A stretch of DNA of 38,611 nucleotides, from positions 1-38,611 of the IMG/VR virus record IMGVR_UViG_3300046688_000010, one strand, 5' to 3'. Origin of the DNA: a virus. The position numbers and the translations under genes were made by a program. Positions 2,648 to 38,611 of this stretch are shown in pieces; position 1 is the stretch's first letter; each line of letters starts with the position of its first letter. A model generated the notes under the pieces. That model was not told the DNA's origin. It did no database searches and was given only the letters and a program-made list of their open reading frames with translations.

Positions 2648-2651
<4 letters not shown>
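1053..2651 (+). CDS. Tail nozzle/hub candidate (beta-propeller-like repeats)
   Basis: 532 aa with recurring G-x-hydrophobic strand-like segments (e.g. [35 protein letters not shown]). GGAG precedes the ATG and the stop overlaps the fibre gene start as GTGA. Function is inferred from synteny. Confidence 0.6.
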
Positions 2652-5220
<2,569 letters not shown>

Positions 5221-5221
<1 letters not shown>

Positions 5222-20571: not shown

Positions 20572-21425
20572 ACTGGGTCCCTTTCTGCCAGCGTACGCCG
20601 GCGAATTTCCTCACGCTTGATGGACGAACGGAATTCGGAGTCGAACAGGAACCAGATCGCCAGTTTGTCTTCGACATCGAAGTTGAACTCCTGGAAAACG
20701 TCGACCGCCTTGACGATGCCGTGCATGGCATAGGCCGCGACCACGTCCTGCGCCTTGCGCTCGAGCACCTCTTTGGCCCCAGCGTCGAGGGCGTTGAATG
20801 CGTCCTCGGTGACGTTGCGCGCGCTGCCCTTGGGCGGTTCACTGTCGCCGCGGGGGCGTTCCGGTGGCTTGTCGTCTGGCTTATCGTCATCCAGGTGCAG
20901 CTGGCCCTTGTGCCAGAGCTCCAGCGCACAACCGAAGCGCATTCCGGCGTTTCTCAAGGCATCGCCGATCGCCTCCTTTTCCCGGGCGCCGACGTCCATG
21001 TACGACTTGTTCTCGGCGTTGCCGTAGCCCAGCCGGGTGACGCCGCACACCGTCAGCCGGATCCACAGACCGCCGCGGGCATCGAACTGCGGCAGGCCAT
21101 CCTCGCCCAGCGCCAGCGGGTCCCAGGACCAAGCCTGGTCGGCCTCGAGCAGGCGATCGGTCAGTGCTGCATGGCCGACGTAGTCCAGGTGGATCACGTC
21201 CGGGTGGTGCCAGCCGCCGCATACCTCGCACCGGCGCTTGAGGTTGGGCGCGCATTCATTCTGGGCTTTGGTGCCCTTGGGCAGCTTGGAGATCTGGTGC
21301 GCCGGGAACGGCTGGCGCAGCAGTTCCAGCCCGGTGGGGGGCGGCGGCGCAGTTTTGCTGCCGAGGGCGATCCTTGGTGGGGTTTCGTACTCTTCCTTAC
21401 CGACTTCGGCTTGCTGTTGGGTCAT
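20568..21425 (-). CDS. Rad52-family single-strand annealing protein (DUF1071/Sak-like)
   Basis: ATG 21425 lies behind AAGGA. The motif ISKLPKG...C..CGGWH....HLDYVGHAALTDRLLEADQAWSWDP...LTVCGVTRLGYG...KEAIGDALRNAGMRFGCALELW is as I recall for this family. Confidence 0.85.
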   Translation of the reverse strand: MTQQQAEVGKEEYETPPRIALGSKTAPPPPTGLELLRQPFPAHQISKLPKGTKAQNECAPNLKRRCEVCGGWHHPDVIHLDYVGHAALTDRLLEADQAWSWDPLALGEDGLPQFDARGGLWIRLTVCGVTRLGYGNAENKSYMDVGAREKEAIGDALRNAGMRFGCALELWHKGQLHLDDDKPDDKPPERPRGDSEPPKGSARNVTEDAFNALDAGAKEVLERKAQDVVAAYAMHGIVKAVDVFQEFNFDVEDKLAIWFLFDSEFRSSIKREEIRRRTLAERDPV

Positions 21426-22961: not shown

Positions 22962-22990
22962 ATTATCACCGCAGCGTAGAAAAGTGTCAA
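22962..22990 (-). promoter_or_regulatory. Sigma70-type promoter (copy A of the duplicated module)
   Basis: On the - strand: TTGACA (22990-22985), 17-nt spacer, GATAAT (22967-22962). An A/T-rich UP-like tract lies upstream. It sits in the 83-bp gap between 23008 and 22924. Confidence 0.65.
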
Positions 22991-23007
22991 TAGTTTTTCT
23001 AATATAT

Positions 23008-23298
23008 TTAACCATTGTCGTATTCCTGCTGCAACAGGTCTTCGATGGCCGCATCCTTGGTCGGGCCGCGGCCGATCAGACATCCCGGCTCGTAGCCGTC
23101 GCGGTAGGCGGACCAGTCCATCGAGCGAATGGGGATCGGCGGGTAGTCGAAGTAGGTGTGGATGCGCTCGGACTTGACCTTGAACCCGGAGCGCTTGCGC
23201 AGCCGGATCAATTCATCGTGCTCAAGATCGAGCTCCCACGGCACCTGGTAGTTGGTTTTCATGTCAAGGCAACAATTGTCTAGTTCTTGCATTGACAT
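23008..23298 (-). CDS. Hypothetical protein (start ambiguous: 23298, 23292 or 23262)
   Basis: 96-aa track ORF. Starting at ATG 23262 would give 84 aa and abut the upstream stop. Confidence 0.65.
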   Translation of the reverse strand: MSMQELDNCCLDMKTNYQVPWELDLEHDELIRLRKRSGFKVKSERIHTYFDYPPIPIRSMDWSAYRDGYEPGCLIGRGPTKDAAIEDLLQQEYDNG

Positions 23299-24176: not shown

Positions 24177-24205
24177 ATTGTCAGGCAAGTGTAGGTATGT
24201 GTCAA
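24177..24205 (-). promoter_or_regulatory. Sigma70-type leftward early promoter (copy B of the duplicated module)
   Basis: On the - strand: TTGACA (24205-24200), 17-nt spacer, GACAAT (24182-24177). Confidence 0.6.
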
Positions 24206-24232
24206 TAGGCTTTCTAATAATTTTCCTGGGTG

Positions 24233-26563: not shown

Positions 26564-26721
26564 TGGACCCGACCGATATCCTGTCCTGGCTTGTGATGAT
26601 CCTGCTGGTGTGCGTATATTTCGTACTGCTGGCGATCTGGGAAAGTTTTCGAGCTCGAGCAAGACGGCGCGAGTACATGCGCCGGTTCTGGACCGAACGC
26701 AGGCGAAGGGGGTTGCGATGA
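26563..26721 (+). CDS. Candidate 52-aa single-TM peptide with an Arg-rich tail
   Basis: The ATG overlaps the upstream stop (TGATG) and the TGA overlaps the next ATG (ATGA). Sequence: [52 protein letters not shown]. Confidence 0.5.
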
Positions 26722-27431
26722 AAGTCTACGTGGGCGGGGTGGAGGTACTGACGGCGACGCAGATCACGATCACCGACGACGGTGCGCCACCGCCATCGGG
26801 CGGCGGTACGCCGGGTCCGGCCGGCCCTCCTGGTCCGCAGGGTGTACCCGGTCCCGCAGGGCCGCAGGGTGCTACTGGCCCAGCCGGCGCCCAGGGACCG
26901 CAAGGGGTGGCTGGACCGCAGGGACCACAAGGGCCTGCAGGGCCGCAGGGACCGGCCGGTGGCACTACCCCACCACCCGACCCCGGCGACGGCGGCACCG
27001 ACCCGCCACCGCCCACTGGCGGGGGTGACTACGCCACCCCGACGGTGCCGATCATCGTGCCCTGGCCTGCCTCGGGCCAGGTTACCCTGCACGTCACCCT
27101 CGGCTACAACGAGACCAAAACCCATCGCCTGGTGTGGAAGGACGCGATGGACCCGGCCAAGACCGGTTTTGTGCGGGTGGTCGAGCAGCCCGGTTCTGCG
27201 GTGATGCCAAGGACGTTCACGCTCAACAACAACGGCGTCGCCAAATTCGGGCCGCACACCGAGAACGCGCCGGGGGCCAGCCTGGTCAACTATCCGACAC
27301 CGGGGTCACCCTCGACGGTGAGCATGAAGTACGACGATACGCTCGACATCATCATTACCAACGGCGACCGGCCACTGGGTGGTGCGAACGGCAACATCCT
27401 GCTCGACATTGGCGTGCCCATGAGGTACTGA
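26718..27431 (+). CDS. Collagen triple-helix-repeat protein (237 aa) outside the structural module
   Basis: Seventeen uninterrupted G-X-Y triplets ([22 protein letters not shown]...GPAG, nt ~26800-26955). These are followed by a Pro-rich linker and a ~150-aa beta-rich C-terminal domain. Confidence 0.85.
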
Positions 27432-29928: not shown

Positions 29929-30498
29929 GTGAGCGCGGAGCGGGTCGGCCTGAAGAAACACGCCATGAGCAGGGCGGGCAACCCAGCAGTGGAAGCCACC
30001 CAGTGGAAACCGGGCCAGTCGGGCAACCCAGCCGGCAGACCGATCGGTGCGCGCCAGCACATAGAGACGGACTTCCTGAACGATGCGCTAGCGGACTGGC
30101 GCAAGGCGGGCGCGAAGAGCTTCCGCAAGCTAGCCGAGAAGGATCCGCACGCGTACCTACGACTGATCGCCGAAGTCGGCAACGTGATAGCAAGGGGCGC
30201 TACCAGTGAGCCCGCTAGCAACCACCCTGGAGCAGTATTCGACGCTGCAGCGTTCCTTGCTGGCGCTATCCTCGGCCGAGCAGGCCCAGGCCATCAGGTA
30301 TCTGTGTCTGCACGACCTGTACTACCTGCTACGGTACGCGCTGAACCGACCGGATGCGGAGCATCAGTGGATCCTGGACAGATGTCGGGAAGTGCAGGCG
30401 GATCCGAACGATCGCCTGGACCTGTGGAGCAGAGGCCACTACAAGAGCTCGATCATCACCCTGGCGCTGACCATCCAGGACATCCTGAACGATCCTGA
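29929..30498 (+). CDS. Terminase small-subunit-like protein (DUF5681-type KPGQSGNPAGRP motif) with an anomalous 3' extension
   Basis: The WKPGQSGNPAGRPIG motif lies directly upstream of TerL. The start is GTG 29929 or ATG 29965. There is no stop until 30498, so the ORF runs 293 nt into terL in a frame with A/T-ending codons. Confidence 0.55.
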   Translation: MSAERVGLKKHAMSRAGNPAVEATQWKPGQSGNPAGRPIGARQHIETDFLNDALADWRKAGAKSFRKLAEKDPHAYLRLIAEVGNVIARGATSEPASNHPGAVFDAAAFLAGAILGRAGPGHQVSVSARPVLPATVRAEPTGCGASVDPGQMSGSAGGSERSPGPVEQRPLQELDHHPGADHPGHPERS

Positions 30499-31720
30499 GC
30501 TAACGGTCGGGCTGTTCTCGCATACGCGCCCGATCGCCAAGGGTTTCTTGCGCCAGATCAAGCGCGAGCTCGAGACCAACGCCTGCCTGCGCGGTCTGTT
30601 CCCGGACATCATCTGGGCCGACCCCGCGCGCCAGGCGCCGAAGTGGAGCGAGGACGATGGGCTAGTGCTCAGGCGCCGCGGCAACCCGAAGGAGAGCACG
30701 CTCGAGGCGCACGGCCTGGTCGACGGCCAGCCGACCGGCAAACACTACTCCATCATGGTCTACGACGACGTCGTGACCCAGAGCTCGGTCACCTCGCCGG
30801 AGATGATGCAGAAAACGACCGAGATGCTCGAGCTGTCGTACAACCTGGGCACCGAGCACGGTCGCCGGCGGTTCGTGGGCACCAGGTACCACGCCGCGGA
30901 CAGTTACCAGACCATCCTGCAGCGCGGCACCGCCACCCAGCGCGTGCGGCTGGCCACCGACGACGGCACCCTGGACGGCGTGCCGGCGATCTGGACCGTG
31001 GAGCAGCTCAAGGAGAAGCGCAAAGACCTGGGCCCGTACACCTTCGCTTGCCAAATTATGCAGGACCCGCTCCACGACGCGACGCAGTCATTCCGCCGCG
31101 AGTGGCTCAAGCACTTCGAGAACCGCTCGGGCGAGGGGATGAACAAGTACCTACTCTGCGACGCGGCGAACAGCAAGCGCCGGAGCTCTGACTACACCAG
31201 CATCTGGGTCATCGGGCTGGCCGCCGATCGCAACTACTACGCGCTGGACATCATTAGGGACAGGTTGAACCTGACCGAGCGCGCCGCGGCGATCATGCGC
31301 CTGCACCGCAAGTGGCGCCCAATGGAGGTCCGCTACGAGTCGTACGGGCTGATGGCCGACATCGCCCATATCAAGGCCTGCCAGGAGGCGGAGAATTACC
31401 GGTTCGATATCACCCCGGTGGCCGGCCGGGCGCCGAAGAACGATCGCGTGCGCCGGCTGCTGCCGCTGTTCGAGCAGGGCCGCTTCTACCTGCCGATCAC
31501 CCATAACTACGGCGACTACGAGCACGTCGTGCGCGACCTGGTGCAGGACTTCATCGAGCAGGAGTACGCGAGCTTTCCTGTCGGCCTGCACGACGACATG
31601 ATGGACGCGCTGTCGCGCATCGCCGAGCCCGAACTCGAGTTGGTATGGCCGCGCGAGTCGAGCTCGACCAAGCCTGACCGCTACAAGCGGGTGGCCGAGA
31701 CCAGCGCGTGGGCGGCATGA
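30206..31720 (+). CDS. terL: Terminase large subunit
   Basis: 504 aa. Walker-A-like RGHYKSS and Walker-B-like IMVYDDV, plus a C-terminal nuclease-like part. GTG start behind AAGGGG; an in-frame TAG at 30188 excludes a longer N-terminus. Confidence 0.92.
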   Translation: MSPLATTLEQYSTLQRSLLALSSAEQAQAIRYLCLHDLYYLLRYALNRPDAEHQWILDRCREVQADPNDRLDLWSRGHYKSSIITLALTIQDILNDPELTVGLFSHTRPIAKGFLRQIKRELETNACLRGLFPDIIWADPARQAPKWSEDDGLVLRRRGNPKESTLEAHGLVDGQPTGKHYSIMVYDDVVTQSSVTSPEMMQKTTEMLELSYNLGTEHGRRRFVGTRYHAADSYQTILQRGTATQRVRLATDDGTLDGVPAIWTVEQLKEKRKDLGPYTFACQIMQDPLHDATQSFRREWLKHFENRSGEGMNKYLLCDAANSKRRSSDYTSIWVIGLAADRNYYALDIIRDRLNLTERAAAIMRLHRKWRPMEVRYESYGLMADIAHIKACQEAENYRFDITPVAGRAPKNDRVRRLLPLFEQGRFYLPITHNYGDYEHVVRDLVQDFIEQEYASFPVGLHDDMMDALSRIAEPELELVWPRESSSTKPDRYKRVAETSAWAA

Positions 31721-32316
31721 GGACCGTGCGCCGGACGCTGACGATCGTGGTCCGCCAGGACGTGGAGGAGGGTGTGCTGTTCGACGCTGCCTACCTGCCT
31801 GCGCTGGTGGAGTATGAGGCCGCGGTGAGGGCCGGGAAGTTGGGCCATAGCACCCCTGAGTTTTTCGAGGCCAGCAACGGGGTGCGCTTTGAGATGGCGC
31901 ACCGCACGGGGCTGGGTGAGCTTGACTCGGTGCGTGAGCTTGGGTTGCAGACGCGCACGGTGAACTGCCTGGTGTCCGAGGGGATCACGACGGTTGCCGC
32001 CCTGGTGACGTGGACTGAGCGCAGGTTGCTGCTGACCCCCAACCTGGGGCGCAAGGCGCTGAACGAGATCAAAGACGCGCTGCAAGCCGAGGGCCTGGTG
32101 CTGGCGAAGGAACCGGTGGCCCCGGAGGTGCCGCTGTGCGCGGTGTGCCGGATGCGGCACTGGCCGGGGGCAGGGCACCGCTATACCGACGAGGAGTCGC
32201 GGCGGCTGACGCTGCTGGCGACCGATCCTGGAATGGTGGCCGAGCTGCTCGCGCGGGTGATCGAACTGGAGAAGCGGGTGCAGCAGATGGCCGCGGCGAC
32301 GGTGGGGATGGTATGA
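31717..32316 (+). CDS. Protein carrying an RNA polymerase alpha-subunit C-terminal-domain-like (alpha-CTD, HhH) segment
   Basis: ATGA-coupled to terL. LGLQTRTVNCLVSEGITTVAALVTWTERRLLLTPNLGRKALNEIKDALQAEGL aligns by eye with E. coli RpoA CTD [53 protein letters not shown]. The C-terminus carries CAVCRMRHWPGAGHRY. Confidence 0.8.
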   Translation: MRTVRRTLTIVVRQDVEEGVLFDAAYLPALVEYEAAVRAGKLGHSTPEFFEASNGVRFEMAHRTGLGELDSVRELGLQTRTVNCLVSEGITTVAALVTWTERRLLLTPNLGRKALNEIKDALQAEGLVLAKEPVAPEVPLCAVCRMRHWPGAGHRYTDEESRRLTLLATDPGMVAELLARVIELEKRVQQMAAATVGMV

Positions 32317-32471
32317 AAGCCCCGGTCTGCAAGCTCTGCCACGTCGAGCATTGGGGCTATCAGCCGCACCGCTGGGCGCAGAAGCAGGTCGAGATGGTGA
32401 AGGGCAAGCCGGTGGAGATCAAGGCGCGGGTGCGTAGTGGCGAGACCTTGCGGAAGATGGAGAAGGCATGA
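32313..32471 (+). CDS. 52-aa Cys/His knuckle protein
   Basis: ATGA-coupled. CKLCHVEHWGYQPHRW repeats the motif at the end of the upstream protein. Confidence 0.6.
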   Translation: MKAPVCKLCHVEHWGYQPHRWAQKQVEMVKGKPVEIKARVRSGETLRKMEKA

Positions 32472-32653
32472 CAGCAAAGCGGACAGAGGTGGAAGAACAA
32501 CCGGTGGGTCCTGGGCTGCGGGAGTTGGAGCAGCAGATGGTGGTGATGAAGTCGGTGCAGGTCGAGCATGACTCTCGGCTATCGCGCATCTGGCACGACG
32601 TGGACGCGCTGCGGCAGCGGTTCGATGCCTTCGCGGCGAAGGTGGAGAAATGA
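32468..32653 (+). CDS. Coiled-coil protein (61 aa)
   Basis: ATGA-coupled. Paralogous to the next ORF. Confidence 0.65.
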   Translation: MTAKRTEVEEQPVGPGLRELEQQMVVMKSVQVEHDSRLSRIWHDVDALRQRFDAFAAKVEK

Positions 32654-32850
32654 CGATAGACAACCGGGACGAGGTCGAGGCGCAGGGGCGCGACGCGGCG
32701 CTGCTGCGGACGGTGCAGAGGATAGATGCCATGCAGCGCAACCTCGATGCGCTGGGGGTGAAGCTGGAGCATATCCGCACCGACACTGACGTGGCGCTGG
32801 CGAAGATCACGGTGCTGGAGCAGGCGGTGGCGGAGGCGTGGAAGAAGTGA
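32650..32850 (+). CDS. Coiled-coil protein (66 aa)
   Basis: ATGA-coupled. (V/I)DA(L/M)..(F/L)DA(F/L)..K(V/L)E is shared with the upstream ORF. Confidence 0.65.
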   Translation: MTIDNRDEVEAQGRDAALLRTVQRIDAMQRNLDALGVKLEHIRTDTDVALAKITVLEQAVAEAWKK

Positions 32851-33146
32851 ACGTGGGCGACCCGTTGCAATTCTTCCACCGGAGTAACGGCCAGCCGGTG
32901 TACGACTCGCTGGGTGAGTCGATCCGGGTGCCGGCGGAGGGGACGCCGATGGCGGCGACGGTGACGGCGGTAGTGAACATGGACACGGTGCACCTGACGG
33001 CCACTGACCTGGACGGCAAGGTGTTCAGCGAGGAGTATGTGTACATCCTCAATGCAGACGATAGCCAGCCGCGTGGTGGGCGGTATGCGCTGCGGATGGA
33101 CGATGCGGTGTTGAAGCACAGACGGGCAACCAGGTACGGGAGATGA
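32847..33146 (+). CDS. Hypothetical protein (99 aa; alternative start GTG 32838)
   Basis: GTG 32847 overlaps the upstream stop (GTGA) and lies 10 nt after GGAGG. Confidence 0.65.
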   Translation: MNVGDPLQFFHRSNGQPVYDSLGESIRVPAEGTPMAATVTAVVNMDTVHLTATDLDGKVFSEEYVYILNADDSQPRGGRYALRMDDAVLKHRRATRYGR

Positions 33147-33469
33147 CGATGGCGACCAAGCGGGAAGTGATCCAGGACGAGCAGGACGCTGAGAAGCGGT
33201 ACGCGAAGGACGAGGCGGGTGGCGGGGTCGAGGACCAGATGCAGGACTCGAAACGGTATCGCTACCTGCGCGACCAGGTCAGGAACGGCGACGGGTCGAT
33301 CAACGAGCAACTCTATGTCCGCTGCGACACCAGTCGCGACGGCCGCTGGTCGCTGGATGGCGAGGACCTGGACAGCGCGCTGGACCTGTTGCTGATCAAC
33401 CGCGCCGAGGCGGAGAAGGCGGCGGCGAAGGCGGCGAAGGAAGAGAAGGCGAAAGCGAAGGGGCGATGA
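33143..33469 (+). CDS. Hypothetical protein (108 aa) with a Lys/Ala-rich tail
   Basis: ATGA-coupled. C-terminus AEKAAAKAAKEEKAKAKGR. Confidence 0.7.
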   Translation: MTMATKREVIQDEQDAEKRYAKDEAGGGVEDQMQDSKRYRYLRDQVRNGDGSINEQLYVRCDTSRDGRWSLDGEDLDSALDLLLINRAEAEKAAAKAAKEEKAKAKGR

Positions 33470-33780
33470 TGGGCGAGGCGCGCAACCGGTTCAATGGTGA
33501 GGCCAGCCTGATCGATACCAGCGTCAGCGATCGCGCGATCCGCAGGGCCAAGCGCGAATTCTGCTCGCAGCTGGCGGAAAGGCTATTGGTGGCCTCGTCG
33601 CAGAACGCCGAGATGCCGATCGAGGTGCTGCTCGAGCGTGCCTGGAAGCTGGCCGAGCTGCACTACGAGGAGATGCTGCGCCGGCTGGCGCTGCGCGAGG
33701 AGGTGAGCCTGACCGAGCGCATGGCGGCCGACCAGACGGTGTCCGAGATGAGCCGAGCGGAGATAGCGCGAGGTAACTGA
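33466..33780 (+). CDS. Hypothetical protein (104 aa)
   Basis: ATGA-coupled. Ends 1 nt before the portal gene. Confidence 0.7.
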   Translation: MMGEARNRFNGEASLIDTSVSDRAIRRAKREFCSQLAERLLVASSQNAEMPIEVLLERAWKLAELHYEEMLRRLALREEVSLTERMAADQTVSEMSRAEIARGN

Positions 33781-33781
33781 C

Positions 33782-36289
33782 ATGTATTCAGAGCAGCCCA
33801 CCGACCCGGTCGACAACAGCGACGAAGAGCTGGTCGACGACATTCTCGAGAAGCGCAAGCGCTCGGAGACGCACCTTGCCGAGTGGCGCAAGAAGGCTGA
33901 GATCTGGTACGACATGGTGGCCGGCAAGCAGTGGACGGCCGAGGACGAGGCGGCGCACAAAGACATGCGCAAGCCGTGCGTGAGCTTCAACAGAATTGCG
34001 GTGATGGTCAACGCCATCTGCGGATCCGAGAGCAACAACCGCCAGGAAGTGCAGTACAAGCCGCGGACGATCGATGACAGTGGGGTCAACGACCTGCTGA
34101 CTGAGGGCGCCAAGTGGGCCAGGGACCAATGCGACGCGGAAGACGAGGAAAGCGACGCCTTCCGCGACACCGTGATCTGCGGTTACGGCTGGACCGAAAC
34201 CAAGATGGACTACGAGTGCAACCCGGAGGGCATGGTTGAGGTGCCGCGCCGGGATCCGTTCGCGTTCCACTACGATCCGGCCGCGGTCAAGCGCAACTTG
34301 AGCGATATGCAGTGGGTGCAGTGCGACGACTGGCTCGACGATGAGACCATTCTCAGCCGTTGGCCGGAGGCGGAGTTGGTCGGCGGCCAGGAGCGACTGC
34401 CGGATACCACCCCGCACGACGCTAGCCGCGCGCCTTGGTATGAAAAGACCGCCACCGATGACGCCCCGGACGGCACGCGCTGCGTCGTGCATCACTGCTG
34501 GCGCGAGCGGGTCACGGTGTGGATGGTCAAGCAGCCTCCTCCCCCAACGCCTCCCCCTCTCCCCCAACTTGGGGGAGGAATGCCGGGAATGCCGCCCCCT
34601 GGAGCGCCCAATGGGCCGCCTGGCATGCCGAGACCGCCTATGCCCCCGGGCGCAGCCGGTGGCATGCCGGCGGGCCCGCCACCAGGGATGCCGCCGCCAC
34701 CGATGGGTCAGCCCAACCCGATGGGGCCGCCAATGCCGGGAATGCAGCCGCCGAATGCGGCAGGAATGCGTCCTCCCGGCATGCCGCCAATGCCTCCTGG
34801 AGCTCCCGCAATGGGCCCAGGAGGCCCGCCAGGCGCGGGTCCCGCAATGCCGCCCCCCGGTCCCGGAATGCGTCCGCCAATGCAACCGAATGCGGCTCCG
34901 CCACCCGGCATGCCGCCGATCGGGATGCCCCCAGGCGGGATGCCGATGCCCCCGCCGCGGCCGAAAAAGCCGCCCGAGATCGAAATGAGCGAGGAGGACT
35001 ATCAGCTGGCGCAGGAGCGGACGCTGCAGATGGGCCTGCCCCCGCTGAAAGGCAAGCGGCGCACGAAAGCGGTGTACAAGCAGGCCTTTTTGCTCGGCAA
35101 GCAGCTGCTCGAGGTGTCCGACGCGCCGTGTCAGTACGAATTCATCTACCAGGCGATCACCGGCTACCGAGATCACCTGAAAGGCACCTTCTACGGCGCC
35201 GTAGCGGTGATGGAAGACCCCCAGCGCTACGCCAATAAGATGCTCAGCCAGCTCCTGCACATGATCAATACCAACGCCAAGGGCGGGATATTGATCGAAG
35301 AGGGCGCGGTCAACGACATCCGCGAGCTGGAGAAGAATTGGGCCAAGACCGATGGGGTGACGTTGGTCAATGCCGGCGCGCTGTCGGGCGCCAAGATCCA
35401 GCCCAAGCCTATCCCGCAGTACCCGAAGTCGATCGACGAGCTATTGACCTTCTCGGTGAGCTCCATTCGCGACGCCAGCGGGGTGCCGCTGGAGATGGTC
35501 GGGCTGGCCGACAAAATGCAGCCCGGCATCGTCGAGGAGGCGCGCACCAATGCCGGCATGGGCAATGTGGCGACGCTGTTCGATGCCTTGCGCCACTATA
35601 GAAAGGCCCAGGGCCGGCTGTTGGCGCATTTCCTGATCGAGTACATGGCCGATGGGCGCCTGGTGCGCGTCGCCGGCCCGCTGGGTGAGAAATACGAACC
35701 GTTGCTGATCCAGCGCGGGGTGCTCGAGTACGACGTGGTGGTCGACGTCGCCCCGACCGCCAGGGACATGAAGGAAAAGACCTTCCTGGCGCTGATGAAG
35801 ATCGCCCCGATGGTGATGCAAGCCGGCGGCCCGGTGCCGGAGGAGGCGCTCGACTATGCGCCGTTGCCGGCCGGGCTCGCGGAGAGCTGGAAGAAGCAAA
35901 TTGCCGCGGCCAAGCAGGCCAAGTCGCAGCAGGGCGACCCGCAGGTGCAGATGGCGCAGGCGGTGGCCCAGGCCGAGCAGGCCAAGGCGCAAACCGCGCA
36001 GACCAAGGCCGGCGCCGACATCCAGCTGAAGCAGCTCGAGCTGCAGGCGCAACAGCAGGCGCTGCAGACCCAGGCGCAGATGAAGCAGATGGAGATGCAG
36101 CTGAAGCAGCTGGACCTGCAAATGGCCCAGCAGCAGTCGCAGTGGAAGGCCGAAGAGCACCGGATGGCGATGGAGCTGCAGACGCTGAAAGTGCAGGGCG
36201 AGCAGCAGAAGCAGGGCGTGGAGATGATGAAGTCGGCGCACGAGGTGCAGCGCATGCAGGCCGCACCACTGGCGCCGACCGTGCAGTGA
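33782..36289 (+). CDS. Portal protein with a Pro/Gly/Met-rich insertion and a C-terminal Gln-rich coiled coil
   Basis: 835 aa, positioned before the scaffold and capsid genes. The N-terminal WYDMVAGKQW / SFNRIAVMVNAICGSE pattern is typical of podovirus portals (from memory). The insert lies at nt ~34530-34975. Confidence 0.9.
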   Translation: MYSEQPTDPVDNSDEELVDDILEKRKRSETHLAEWRKKAEIWYDMVAGKQWTAEDEAAHKDMRKPCVSFNRIAVMVNAICGSESNNRQEVQYKPRTIDDSGVNDLLTEGAKWARDQCDAEDEESDAFRDTVICGYGWTETKMDYECNPEGMVEVPRRDPFAFHYDPAAVKRNLSDMQWVQCDDWLDDETILSRWPEAELVGGQERLPDTTPHDASRAPWYEKTATDDAPDGTRCVVHHCWRERVTVWMVKQPPPPTPPPLPQLGGGMPGMPPPGAPNGPPGMPRPPMPPGAAGGMPAGPPPGMPPPPMGQPNPMGPPMPGMQPPNAAGMRPPGMPPMPPGAPAMGPGGPPGAGPAMPPPGPGMRPPMQPNAAPPPGMPPIGMPPGGMPMPPPRPKKPPEIEMSEEDYQLAQERTLQMGLPPLKGKRRTKAVYKQAFLLGKQLLEVSDAPCQYEFIYQAITGYRDHLKGTFYGAVAVMEDPQRYANKMLSQLLHMINTNAKGGILIEEGAVNDIRELEKNWAKTDGVTLVNAGALSGAKIQPKPIPQYPKSIDELLTFSVSSIRDASGVPLEMVGLADKMQPGIVEEARTNAGMGNVATLFDALRHYRKAQGRLLAHFLIEYMADGRLVRVAGPLGEKYEPLLIQRGVLEYDVVVDVAPTARDMKEKTFLALMKIAPMVMQAGGPVPEEALDYAPLPAGLAESWKKQIAAAKQAKSQQGDPQVQMAQAVAQAEQAKAQTAQTKAGADIQLKQLELQAQQQALQTQAQMKQMEMQLKQLDLQMAQQQSQWKAEEHRMAMELQTLKVQGEQQKQGVEMMKSAHEVQRMQAAPLAPTVQ

Positions 36290-38449: not shown

Positions 38450-38611
38450 ATGCCGACAGGAGTAGTTGCAACGAATGCGCGGAATTTTCACCAGCAGATG
38501 GTGCATTACCTGCGCCGTGGAATTGACTACACGCTGAAGGGTGGCGTGGTCGATGTCGGGACCATCCCCGCCGGGTCGCTGATCGTTTATTCGGCCTCGG
38601 GGGTGTTCGTG
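38450..38611 (+). CDS. 5' part of the junction-spanning capsid-associated gene (continues at base 1)
   Basis: AAGGAG lies 7 nt upstream of ATG 38450. From 38485 onward the sequence is identical to 1..127. Confidence 0.7.
   Translation, partial: MPTGVVATNARNFHQQMVHYLRRGIDYTLKGGVVDVGTIPAGSLIVYSASGVFV
38485..38611. repeat. 127-bp exact duplicate of window bases 1..127 (circular closure or terminal redundancy)
   Basis: Direct comparison: TTTTCACCAGCAGATGGTGCATTACC...GGGGTGTTCGTG occurs at both ends. Confidence 0.97.

Follow-up and report, generated by a model that had tools for sequence, protein, structure and literature searches.

A gene at positions 31717..32316 (+ strand) of the IMG/VR virus record IMGVR_UViG_3300046688_000010 encodes a 199-aa protein that carries a genuine, stand-alone domain of the fold found at the C-terminus of the RNA polymerase alpha subunit (the alpha C-terminal domain, alpha-CTD), the part of the enzyme that recognises UP elements and to which most class I activators dock. 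The window, i.e. the whole stretch of 38,611 nucleotides that was analysed, has an exact 127-bp terminal direct repeat (1-127 and 38485-38611), and therefore represents a complete phage genome of about 38.5 kb (65% G+C), assembled as a closed circle. The protein is neither an orthologue of RpoA nor a small terminase, nor is it like PmgS; it belongs to a set of phage alpha-CTD-only proteins that have been annotated and left unstudied, and within this set its architecture and its position are new. As for its role, the explanation that we consider best, and put forward tentatively, is that the protein binds A/T-rich minor-groove DNA, oligomerises, and dampens the transcription that depends on UP elements and the alpha-CTD.

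The alpha-CTD domain and its flanks

The start ATG of the gene overlaps the stop codon of terL, the gene of the large terminase directly upstream (…GGCATGA…), and its stop codon overlaps the start of the next open reading frame (ORF), again as ATGA, with 199 codons and the stop in between. The + frame is taken as the coding frame of 31717-32316 because its G+C content at third codon positions (GC3) is 0.88 and because a comparison with a homologue of 89% identity yields a ratio of nonsynonymous to synonymous substitution rates (dN/dS) of 0.34. The gene is under purifying selection, and its N-terminal 68 codons are constrained as well, with a dN of 0.074, a dS of 0.316 and a dN/dS of 0.23 in the comparison with the same homologue.

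The alpha-CTD, a double helix-hairpin-helix domain, occupies residues 69-131 (31921..32109, + strand), on the evidence of Pfam, phmmer, residue alignment, AlphaFold2 and Foldseek. The Pfam model PF03118 (RNA_pol_A_CTD) matches residues 71-123 with an E-value of 5.3e-16 and 58.5 bits, the gathering cut-off being 23.8 bits, and the generic HHH_5 model scores under its own cut-off on the 199-aa protein. All 51 matches of a phmmer search against the PDB sequences are RpoA (best E about 1e-10), and the best of them align without gaps over 60-63 residues to E. coli and other alpha-CTDs. In an AlphaFold2 model computed from a 59-sequence alignment, residues 71-130 have predicted local confidence (pLDDT) values of 88-95, and Foldseek superposes them on the E. 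coli alpha-CTD (1lb2_E) with a root-mean-square deviation of 0.9 A over 60 columns (TM 0.86), and on that of B. subtilis (3gfk_B) with 0.7 A. Because the alignment behind this model consists mostly of RpoA fragments, the model largely restates the sequence match; an earlier AlphaFold model from a 5-sequence alignment had a pLDDT of only 41. A previous reading of this DNA from its letters and ORFs (hereafter the sequence-only reading) had claimed an alpha-CTD-like domain in the protein, to be checked with PF03118 and by superposing a model on the RpoA CTD. The Pfam score, the ungapped PDB alignments and the superposition, RpoA-rich as its alignment is, bear this claim out, and the motifs on which it was based, NCL, LL.TPNLG(R/K)K.L.EIKD.L and the following GL, are all in register with solved alpha-CTDs.

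PF03118 is the only Pfam match in the 199-aa protein, in which no alpha N-terminal domain (alpha-NTD; PF01000/PF01193) was found, and because of this lack the protein would not be an assembled polymerase subunit. Compared with the alpha-CTD of RpoA (PDB 1LB2, 3K4G and 9ZUM), it thus shows the same fold and family and an ungapped core alignment, but it is phage-encoded, cannot be built into the polymerase, and has 68 N-terminal residues and a C-terminal extension of its own. The N-terminal region (residues 1-68; 31717..31920, + strand) is predicted, with low to medium confidence, to contain a helix (24-38) and a beta-hairpin (48-60), and an exhaustive HMMER search and hhalign detected a homologue of it in close relatives only. 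Homology to the N-termini of other small alpha-CTD proteins, those of a subgroup with Trp at E. coli position 284 (see below), was rejected with an hhalign probability of 0.3%. In the exhaustive HMMER search only the alpha-CTD of the query finds matches; the alignments that go further (query residues about 15-168) are low-complexity or repeat, none being convincing outside the alpha-CTD. A word-indexed search with the C-terminal 70 residues gave no candidates, though even the 89% homologue was not returned by it.

The C-terminal extension consists of two elements. Residues 141-156 (32137..32184, + strand) form the sequence pattern C-x2-C-x3-H-W-x4-H-R-Y, a candidate zinc knuckle with the CCHH ligand spacing C141-x2-C144-x3-H148-x5-H154, a part of the model in which confidence is low. 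They are followed by predicted amphipathic helices at residues 158-198 (32188..32310, + strand; pLDDT 65-85), a candidate oligomerisation element. The next ORF, of 52 aa, begins with a motif of the same spacing, C-x2-C-x3-H-W-x4-H-R-W (32328-32375), and two of the three occurrences of the pattern C..C...HW in the six-frame translation are those in these adjacent genes. BLASTP gave no alignment between the C-terminus of the alpha-CTD protein and this ORF, and the CCHH likeness is one of pattern only; C-x2-C-x3-H-W-x4-H-R-[YW] may mark a small family of candidate zinc knuckles in this phage. Looser motifs of the form CxxC..WH..H are present at 21230 (-) and 27795 (+), in the annealing-protein ORF and another short frame.

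As to the origin of the domain, its core is 52-57% identical to the nearest free-standing proteins (up to 52% for IMG/VR copies and 57% for metagenomic single-domain proteins) and 46-49% identical to RpoAs, and these values show that it is not a recent capture from a host. Descent from the true 3' end of an rpoA gene is hinted at by W149-P150, a pair that lines up with the NWPP tail conserved in RpoA. The same match would also suit a decaying, functionless fragment of a captured host rpoA, but we find such a fragment barely credible: five independent contigs carry the frame unbroken, the dN/dS given above and the preserved translational coupling both speak against decay, and the domain is about as close to the free-standing copies as to RpoA, which a recent capture would not be.

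Contact residues and a possible role

The domain was aligned on E. coli RpoA numbering, along with 36 homologues that are free-standing and 12 RpoAs obtained in the searches; 13 RpoAs were compared in all. The DNA contacts of the E. coli '265 determinant', which we take to be R265, N268, C269, G296, K298 and S299, are identical in the phage domain at five of the six positions (R80, N83, C84, G111 and K113, respectively), and the sixth, S299, is Ala. R265, G296 and the T-P-N-L-G-R/K-K loop are nearly invariant across the 36 other free-standing homologues. The surfaces that presumably contact sigma region 4 or activators in E. coli (D259/E261; T285-L289, G315 and R317; K271), including the positions assumed to contact CAP (V287, E288, G315 and R317), are much altered. 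At five positions where the 13 RpoAs never differ, the phage domain has another residue (R255D, E261G, K271V, R284W and K291L), and the activator-contact positions are changed as well (V287R, E288R, G315A and R317E); T285, E286 and L289 are retained. In the other free-standing copies there is free variation at these same positions. Counting this protein, 11 of the 37 free-standing sequences have a Trp at position 284; no RpoA does.

These substitutions bear directly on the possibility that the protein is a protein-protein decoy, an alpha-CTD mimic that titrates class I activators, sigma region 4, NusA or other partners. A decoy would be in keeping with the genuine alpha-CTD fold, with the three retained residues T285, E286 and L289, and with the fact that phages do target alpha-CTD function: Alt and ModA of T4 ADP-ribosylate R265 of the alpha-CTD (PMC2988021), gp67 of phage G1 blocks the use of UP elements by the alpha-CTD (PMC3694059), and Rac of phiKMV acts by cleavage of alpha (PMC7552054). 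However, five residues at which all sampled RpoAs agree have been altered, as have the CAP-contact positions, and the same surfaces are variable in other free-standing phage copies; we consider a decoy unlikely. The titration of host activators, which the sequence-only reading had offered among the roles of the protein, is disfavoured on the same grounds, the sigma region 4 and CAP-type surfaces being invariant in the RpoAs sampled and not conserved here.

We tentatively prefer competition for DNA sites. The alpha-CTD domain would bind the A/T-rich minor groove, as the RpoA alpha-CTD does on UP elements, because the DNA-contact residues are retained, and the C-terminal helix, perhaps together with the CCHH knuckle, would oligomerise the protein, which would thereby present at least two heads for DNA binding, as RNA polymerase does with its pair of alpha-CTDs. 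By occupying UP-like or A/T-rich sites, the oligomer would compete with the host polymerase's own alpha-CTDs, and alpha-CTD-dependent transcription, e.g. that from strong host promoters, would be lowered late in infection. Points in its favour are also the fusion of sigma region 4 to an alpha-CTD in L007, the setting of other phage copies among replication and early genes, and the precedent of BREX PglW, all described below. The outcome, a loss of alpha-CTD/UP-dependent host transcription, would be the same as that brought about by T4 Alt/ModA, G1 gp67 and phiKMV Rac. Those proteins, however, act on the host protein, whereas the phage alpha-CTD would compete for its DNA site, and they have no kinship with it in sequence or fold. 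If the proposal is true, competition for the DNA site by a stand-alone copy would be a fourth, unexplored strategy beside chemical modification, blocking and cleavage; if the DNA binding is merely non-specific, the gene would be an ordinary accessory gene.

Several points weigh against site competition. The retained DNA-contact residues are also part of the structural core of the fold, and their conservation is not proof of DNA binding. The protein is not basic overall, with an isoelectric point of 6.1 for the whole chain and 8.2 for the domain alone, and the heptad count of the C-terminal helix is not decisive. The whole genome has one UP-consensus-like site, at 22988-23011 (three overlapping matches vs 0.46 expected, a number equalled in 4 of 100 shuffles). 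The benefit of a late inhibitor of alpha-CTD-dependent transcription is not obvious unless the late promoters are UP-independent, and the ORF that takes the place of the gene in relatives, described below, has a Tat-signal-like start and gives no hint of a function shared with the alpha-CTD protein. The sequence-only reading had suggested that the protein might occupy UP-like A/T tracts, such as those upstream of this phage's own early promoters. Such occupancy is still the most plausible role, with the DNA contacts kept, but there is just one UP-consensus-like site in the genome, and it is not above chance.

None of the ORFs scanned in the closed genome was recognised as a phage RNA polymerase gene, and for this reason the host polymerase presumably transcribes this phage throughout. 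Within the early region, the two spots richest in A/T, at about 22984-23008 and 24199-24223, have the motif GTGTCAATAG-N5-TTCTAATA in common, and the copy at about 22984-23008 overlaps the only UP-consensus-like site of the genome.

An exchangeable cassette behind terL

The full-length protein is found elsewhere in only one other 90%-cluster, whose members, 89% identical, lie at the same place on four metagenomic contigs. A megablast search of the region against GenBank found no close phage relatives, a tblastn search of the 'phages' collection with the protein returned mostly rpoA from bacterial contamination, a scan of a genome collection with the full protein gave only an unrelated Bradyrhizobium protein with two repeats, and a metagenome scan with the full protein gave no match.

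Two relatives lack the alpha-CTD gene. In one of them, L075, TerL is 96.6% and the capsid protein 99.7% identical to those of this phage; in the other, L077, the values are 77% and 85%. The DNA homology to both ends exactly at the terL stop codon (31720), and resumes at 32299 in L075 and at 32310 in L077, i.e. 14 nt and 3 nt before the start of g52, the gene of the 52-aa ORF mentioned above, so that the breakpoints delimit a cassette at 31721..32298. The slot holds, in L075 (3227-3487) as well as in L077 (about 2160-2477), an unrelated ORF of about 86-100 codons, which is homologous between the two relatives, starts with MNRRGFLG… (Tat-/twin-arginine signal-like) and has no Pfam match. Both cassette types have identical ATGA junctions at both ends. 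Since its place is taken by an unrelated ORF in close relatives, the alpha-CTD gene is an optional, exchangeable accessory cassette and not a conserved part of packaging or head assembly; it is probably a newcomer there, because the more divergent L077 has the other cassette. Furthermore, the interval between terL and the portal gene is a hotspot for variable genes, because in distant TerL relatives (55-58% identical) only 0.6-1 kb separate terL from the putative portal gene. Near-isogenic phages with alternative cassettes in the same coupled slot amount to a natural experiment.

The operon runs, in order, through a 60-aa ORF, a DUF5681 ORF, terL, the alpha-CTD gene, six small ORFs, the portal gene, a 300-aa ORF and a PF13252 capsid gene. 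The large terminase gene terL (30206..31720, + strand; phrog_38, E 7.7e-59) is translationally coupled to the alpha-CTD gene. The DUF5681 ORF (29929-30498; PF18932, 32 bits) is a candidate small terminase in the usual position of that gene; it overlaps terL by 293 nt in another frame, and both L075 and L077 retain the long ORF, at 77% and 40% identity, respectively. The six small ORFs between the alpha-CTD gene and the portal gene (32313-33780; 52-108 aa) have no family matches; the first of them, g52 (32313..32471, + strand), with its CCHH motif, is kept in the relatives without the alpha-CTD gene. The P22-like portal gene (33782..36289, + strand) closes the interval. Its product has a Pro-, Gly- and Met-rich low-complexity insert of about 160 aa (about 34530-35000), and the DNA at 34532-34945 cannot be aligned to L077. 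The sequence-only reading had placed the alpha-CTD gene wedged between terL and the portal gene; it adjoins terL only, the six small ORFs coming before the portal gene. Successive genes from terL through the ORF before the portal gene overlap by 4 nt (in one case by 13 nt), and a scan found no promoter- or terminator-like sites inside or flanking the alpha-CTD cassette. It is a reasonable inference from this operon structure that the alpha-CTD gene is expressed late.

The position next to terL raises the possibility of a packaging accessory, a small-terminase-like helper that would recognise DNA and assist the terminase as an oligomer at the packaging site. Small terminases generally combine a DNA-binding domain with an oligomerisation element, and the phage protein, with its alpha-CTD and its predicted oligomerisation helix, has this layout, besides being encoded directly 3' of terL and translationally coupled to it. 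The gene is, however, absent from L075 and L077, in which the Tat-signal-like ORF fills the slot; the DUF5681 ORF upstream of terL already holds the usual small-terminase position; Pfam and PHROGs gave no terminase small-subunit match; and the short terL-portal distance in the distant relatives also argues against a packaging role, which we regard as very unlikely. The binding of packaging DNA, likewise suggested in the sequence-only reading, is disfavoured by the relatives in which an unrelated ORF goes together with a 97%-identical TerL and a 99.7%-identical capsid protein. A PmgS-like identity (phrog_1660) was rejected, the E-value of 0.027 for phrog_1660 being at chance level and that of BLASTP against P1 PmgS being 2.2; P1 PmgS itself has no PF03118 match.

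The operon context also bears on a virion-delivered takeover factor, which would be packaged, injected and brought to act on the transcription of the next host, following the logic of T4 Alt. The gene lies in a head-morphogenesis operon among small conserved ORFs with no assigned function, and a late modulator of transcription would make most sense if it were carried into the next infection. No capsid-targeting signal and no match to a structural protein were found, though, and an exchangeable cassette would be unusual for a virion component, which makes delivery in the virion quite unlikely.

Stand-alone alpha-CTD proteins elsewhere

When 1.84 billion cluster representatives were searched exhaustively with HMMER, 3199 matches were obtained at E <= 0.001, the best 150 of which include proteins with up to 12 tandem alpha-CTD repeats as well as about 40 proteins of <250 aa. 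Examples of the tandem-repeat metagenomic proteins are P0005 (891 aa) and P0006 (1031 aa). A scan of IMG/VR with two conserved peptides identified 69 loci, which form 28 clusters at 60% identity, and at all 69 the domain lies in a small ORF (77-235 aa), never in a full rpoA. Other annotated carriers of the alpha-CTD alone include UniProt viral entries, Rhodococcus phage Finch and Mycobacterium phage Mithril, as well as gp005 of Bacillus phage vB_BmeM-Goe8, a protein of 210 aa annotated as 'RNA polymerase subunit alpha', whose gene lies among small hypothetical genes at a distance of 2 kb from the record's left end. ORF40 of Erythrobacter phage vB_EliS-L02, also alpha-CTD-only, is mentioned in the genome paper without a functional test (PMC9127768). 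The uniqueness that the sequence-only reading had implied is thus not borne out by the IMG/VR loci and the several cultured phages, and its statement that it knew of no characterised phage protein of this kind holds for the literature searched, which gave genome-annotation mentions only. Stand-alone copies of the alpha-CTD are hence frequent in phages, and a functional study was found for none of them in the literature searched.

The protein resembles the other phage alpha-CTD-only proteins in its small size, its single PF03118 domain and its lack of an alpha-NTD, and several of them share the Trp at the R284 position. It differs from them in that most are 95-180 aa long and end with the domain, whereas here a CCHH-plus-helix extension is added, and in its unrelated N-terminus. 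The genomic setting is also different: theirs are usually found in early or replication modules, and this one stands beside terL and the head genes. The neighbours of 27 cluster representatives are mainly exonucleases, helicases, DNA polymerase, single-stranded DNA-binding protein (SSB), RusA and phage RNA polymerase, and among these 27 representatives L031 is the only locus at which terL and a portal gene follow downstream, some 2 kb away.

The domain is also found outside RNA polymerase in multi-domain proteins. L007 (5482-6189), a 235-aa protein of a viral contig, contains sigma-70 region 4 (PF04545, 34.9 bits with a cut-off of 24.1) and an alpha-CTD (72.4 bits), and therefore at least some such proteins are tied to promoter DNA. 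It joins in one chain both modules for the recognition of upstream promoter DNA. The Bradyrhizobium protein mentioned above (L082:3040-4047, from Bradyrhizobium uaiense NZ_VKHP01000020.1) has 335 aa with two near-host-like alpha-CTD repeats and an N-terminus that is weakly T5orf172-like (19.1 bits, cut-off 20), and the ORFs adjoining its gene look AbiEi/AbiEii-like on reading their sequences. It has also been reported that PglW of the BREX system uses an alpha-CTD-like fold as a generic DNA-binding module (PMC12839542). What PglW, the metagenomic proteins with 2-12 repeats, the T5orf172-like protein with its two alpha-CTDs and the sigma region 4 fusion share with the phage protein is the use of the domain outside RNA polymerase; their architectures are different, and none has the N- or C-terminal parts of this protein.

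Such contexts are relevant to the view that the protein is a DNA-binding accessory outside transcription, concerned with DNA protection, anti-defence, phage exclusion, or help in replication or recombination. Consistent with this view, the alpha-CTD-only genes of other phages have those of exonucleases, helicases, polymerases, SSB and RusA as neighbours, alpha-CTDs occur in defence-type contexts such as the Bradyrhizobium protein by its AbiE-like ORFs and BREX PglW, and the slot behind terL behaves like a moron-type hotspot. Nothing specific points to it in this phage, however, though no search of PADLOC or of a defence or anti-defence library was made, and the neighbourhoods in other phages do not transfer to a protein of different architecture; a role outside transcription seems to us possible but rather doubtful. 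With similar reserve, we would extend the tentative proposal of site competition to the whole set: phages might widely deploy stand-alone alpha-CTDs that compete for UP or A/T-rich promoter DNA, the present protein being a two-headed, late and possibly virion-carried example, an extension for which we hold only a modest hope.

A scan of the genome found no tRNA genes. Collagen-like triple-helix repeats (PF01391) are present in two ORFs of this phage, one of 857 aa in the structural region (2648-5221) and one of 273 aa in the early/middle region (26610-27431).

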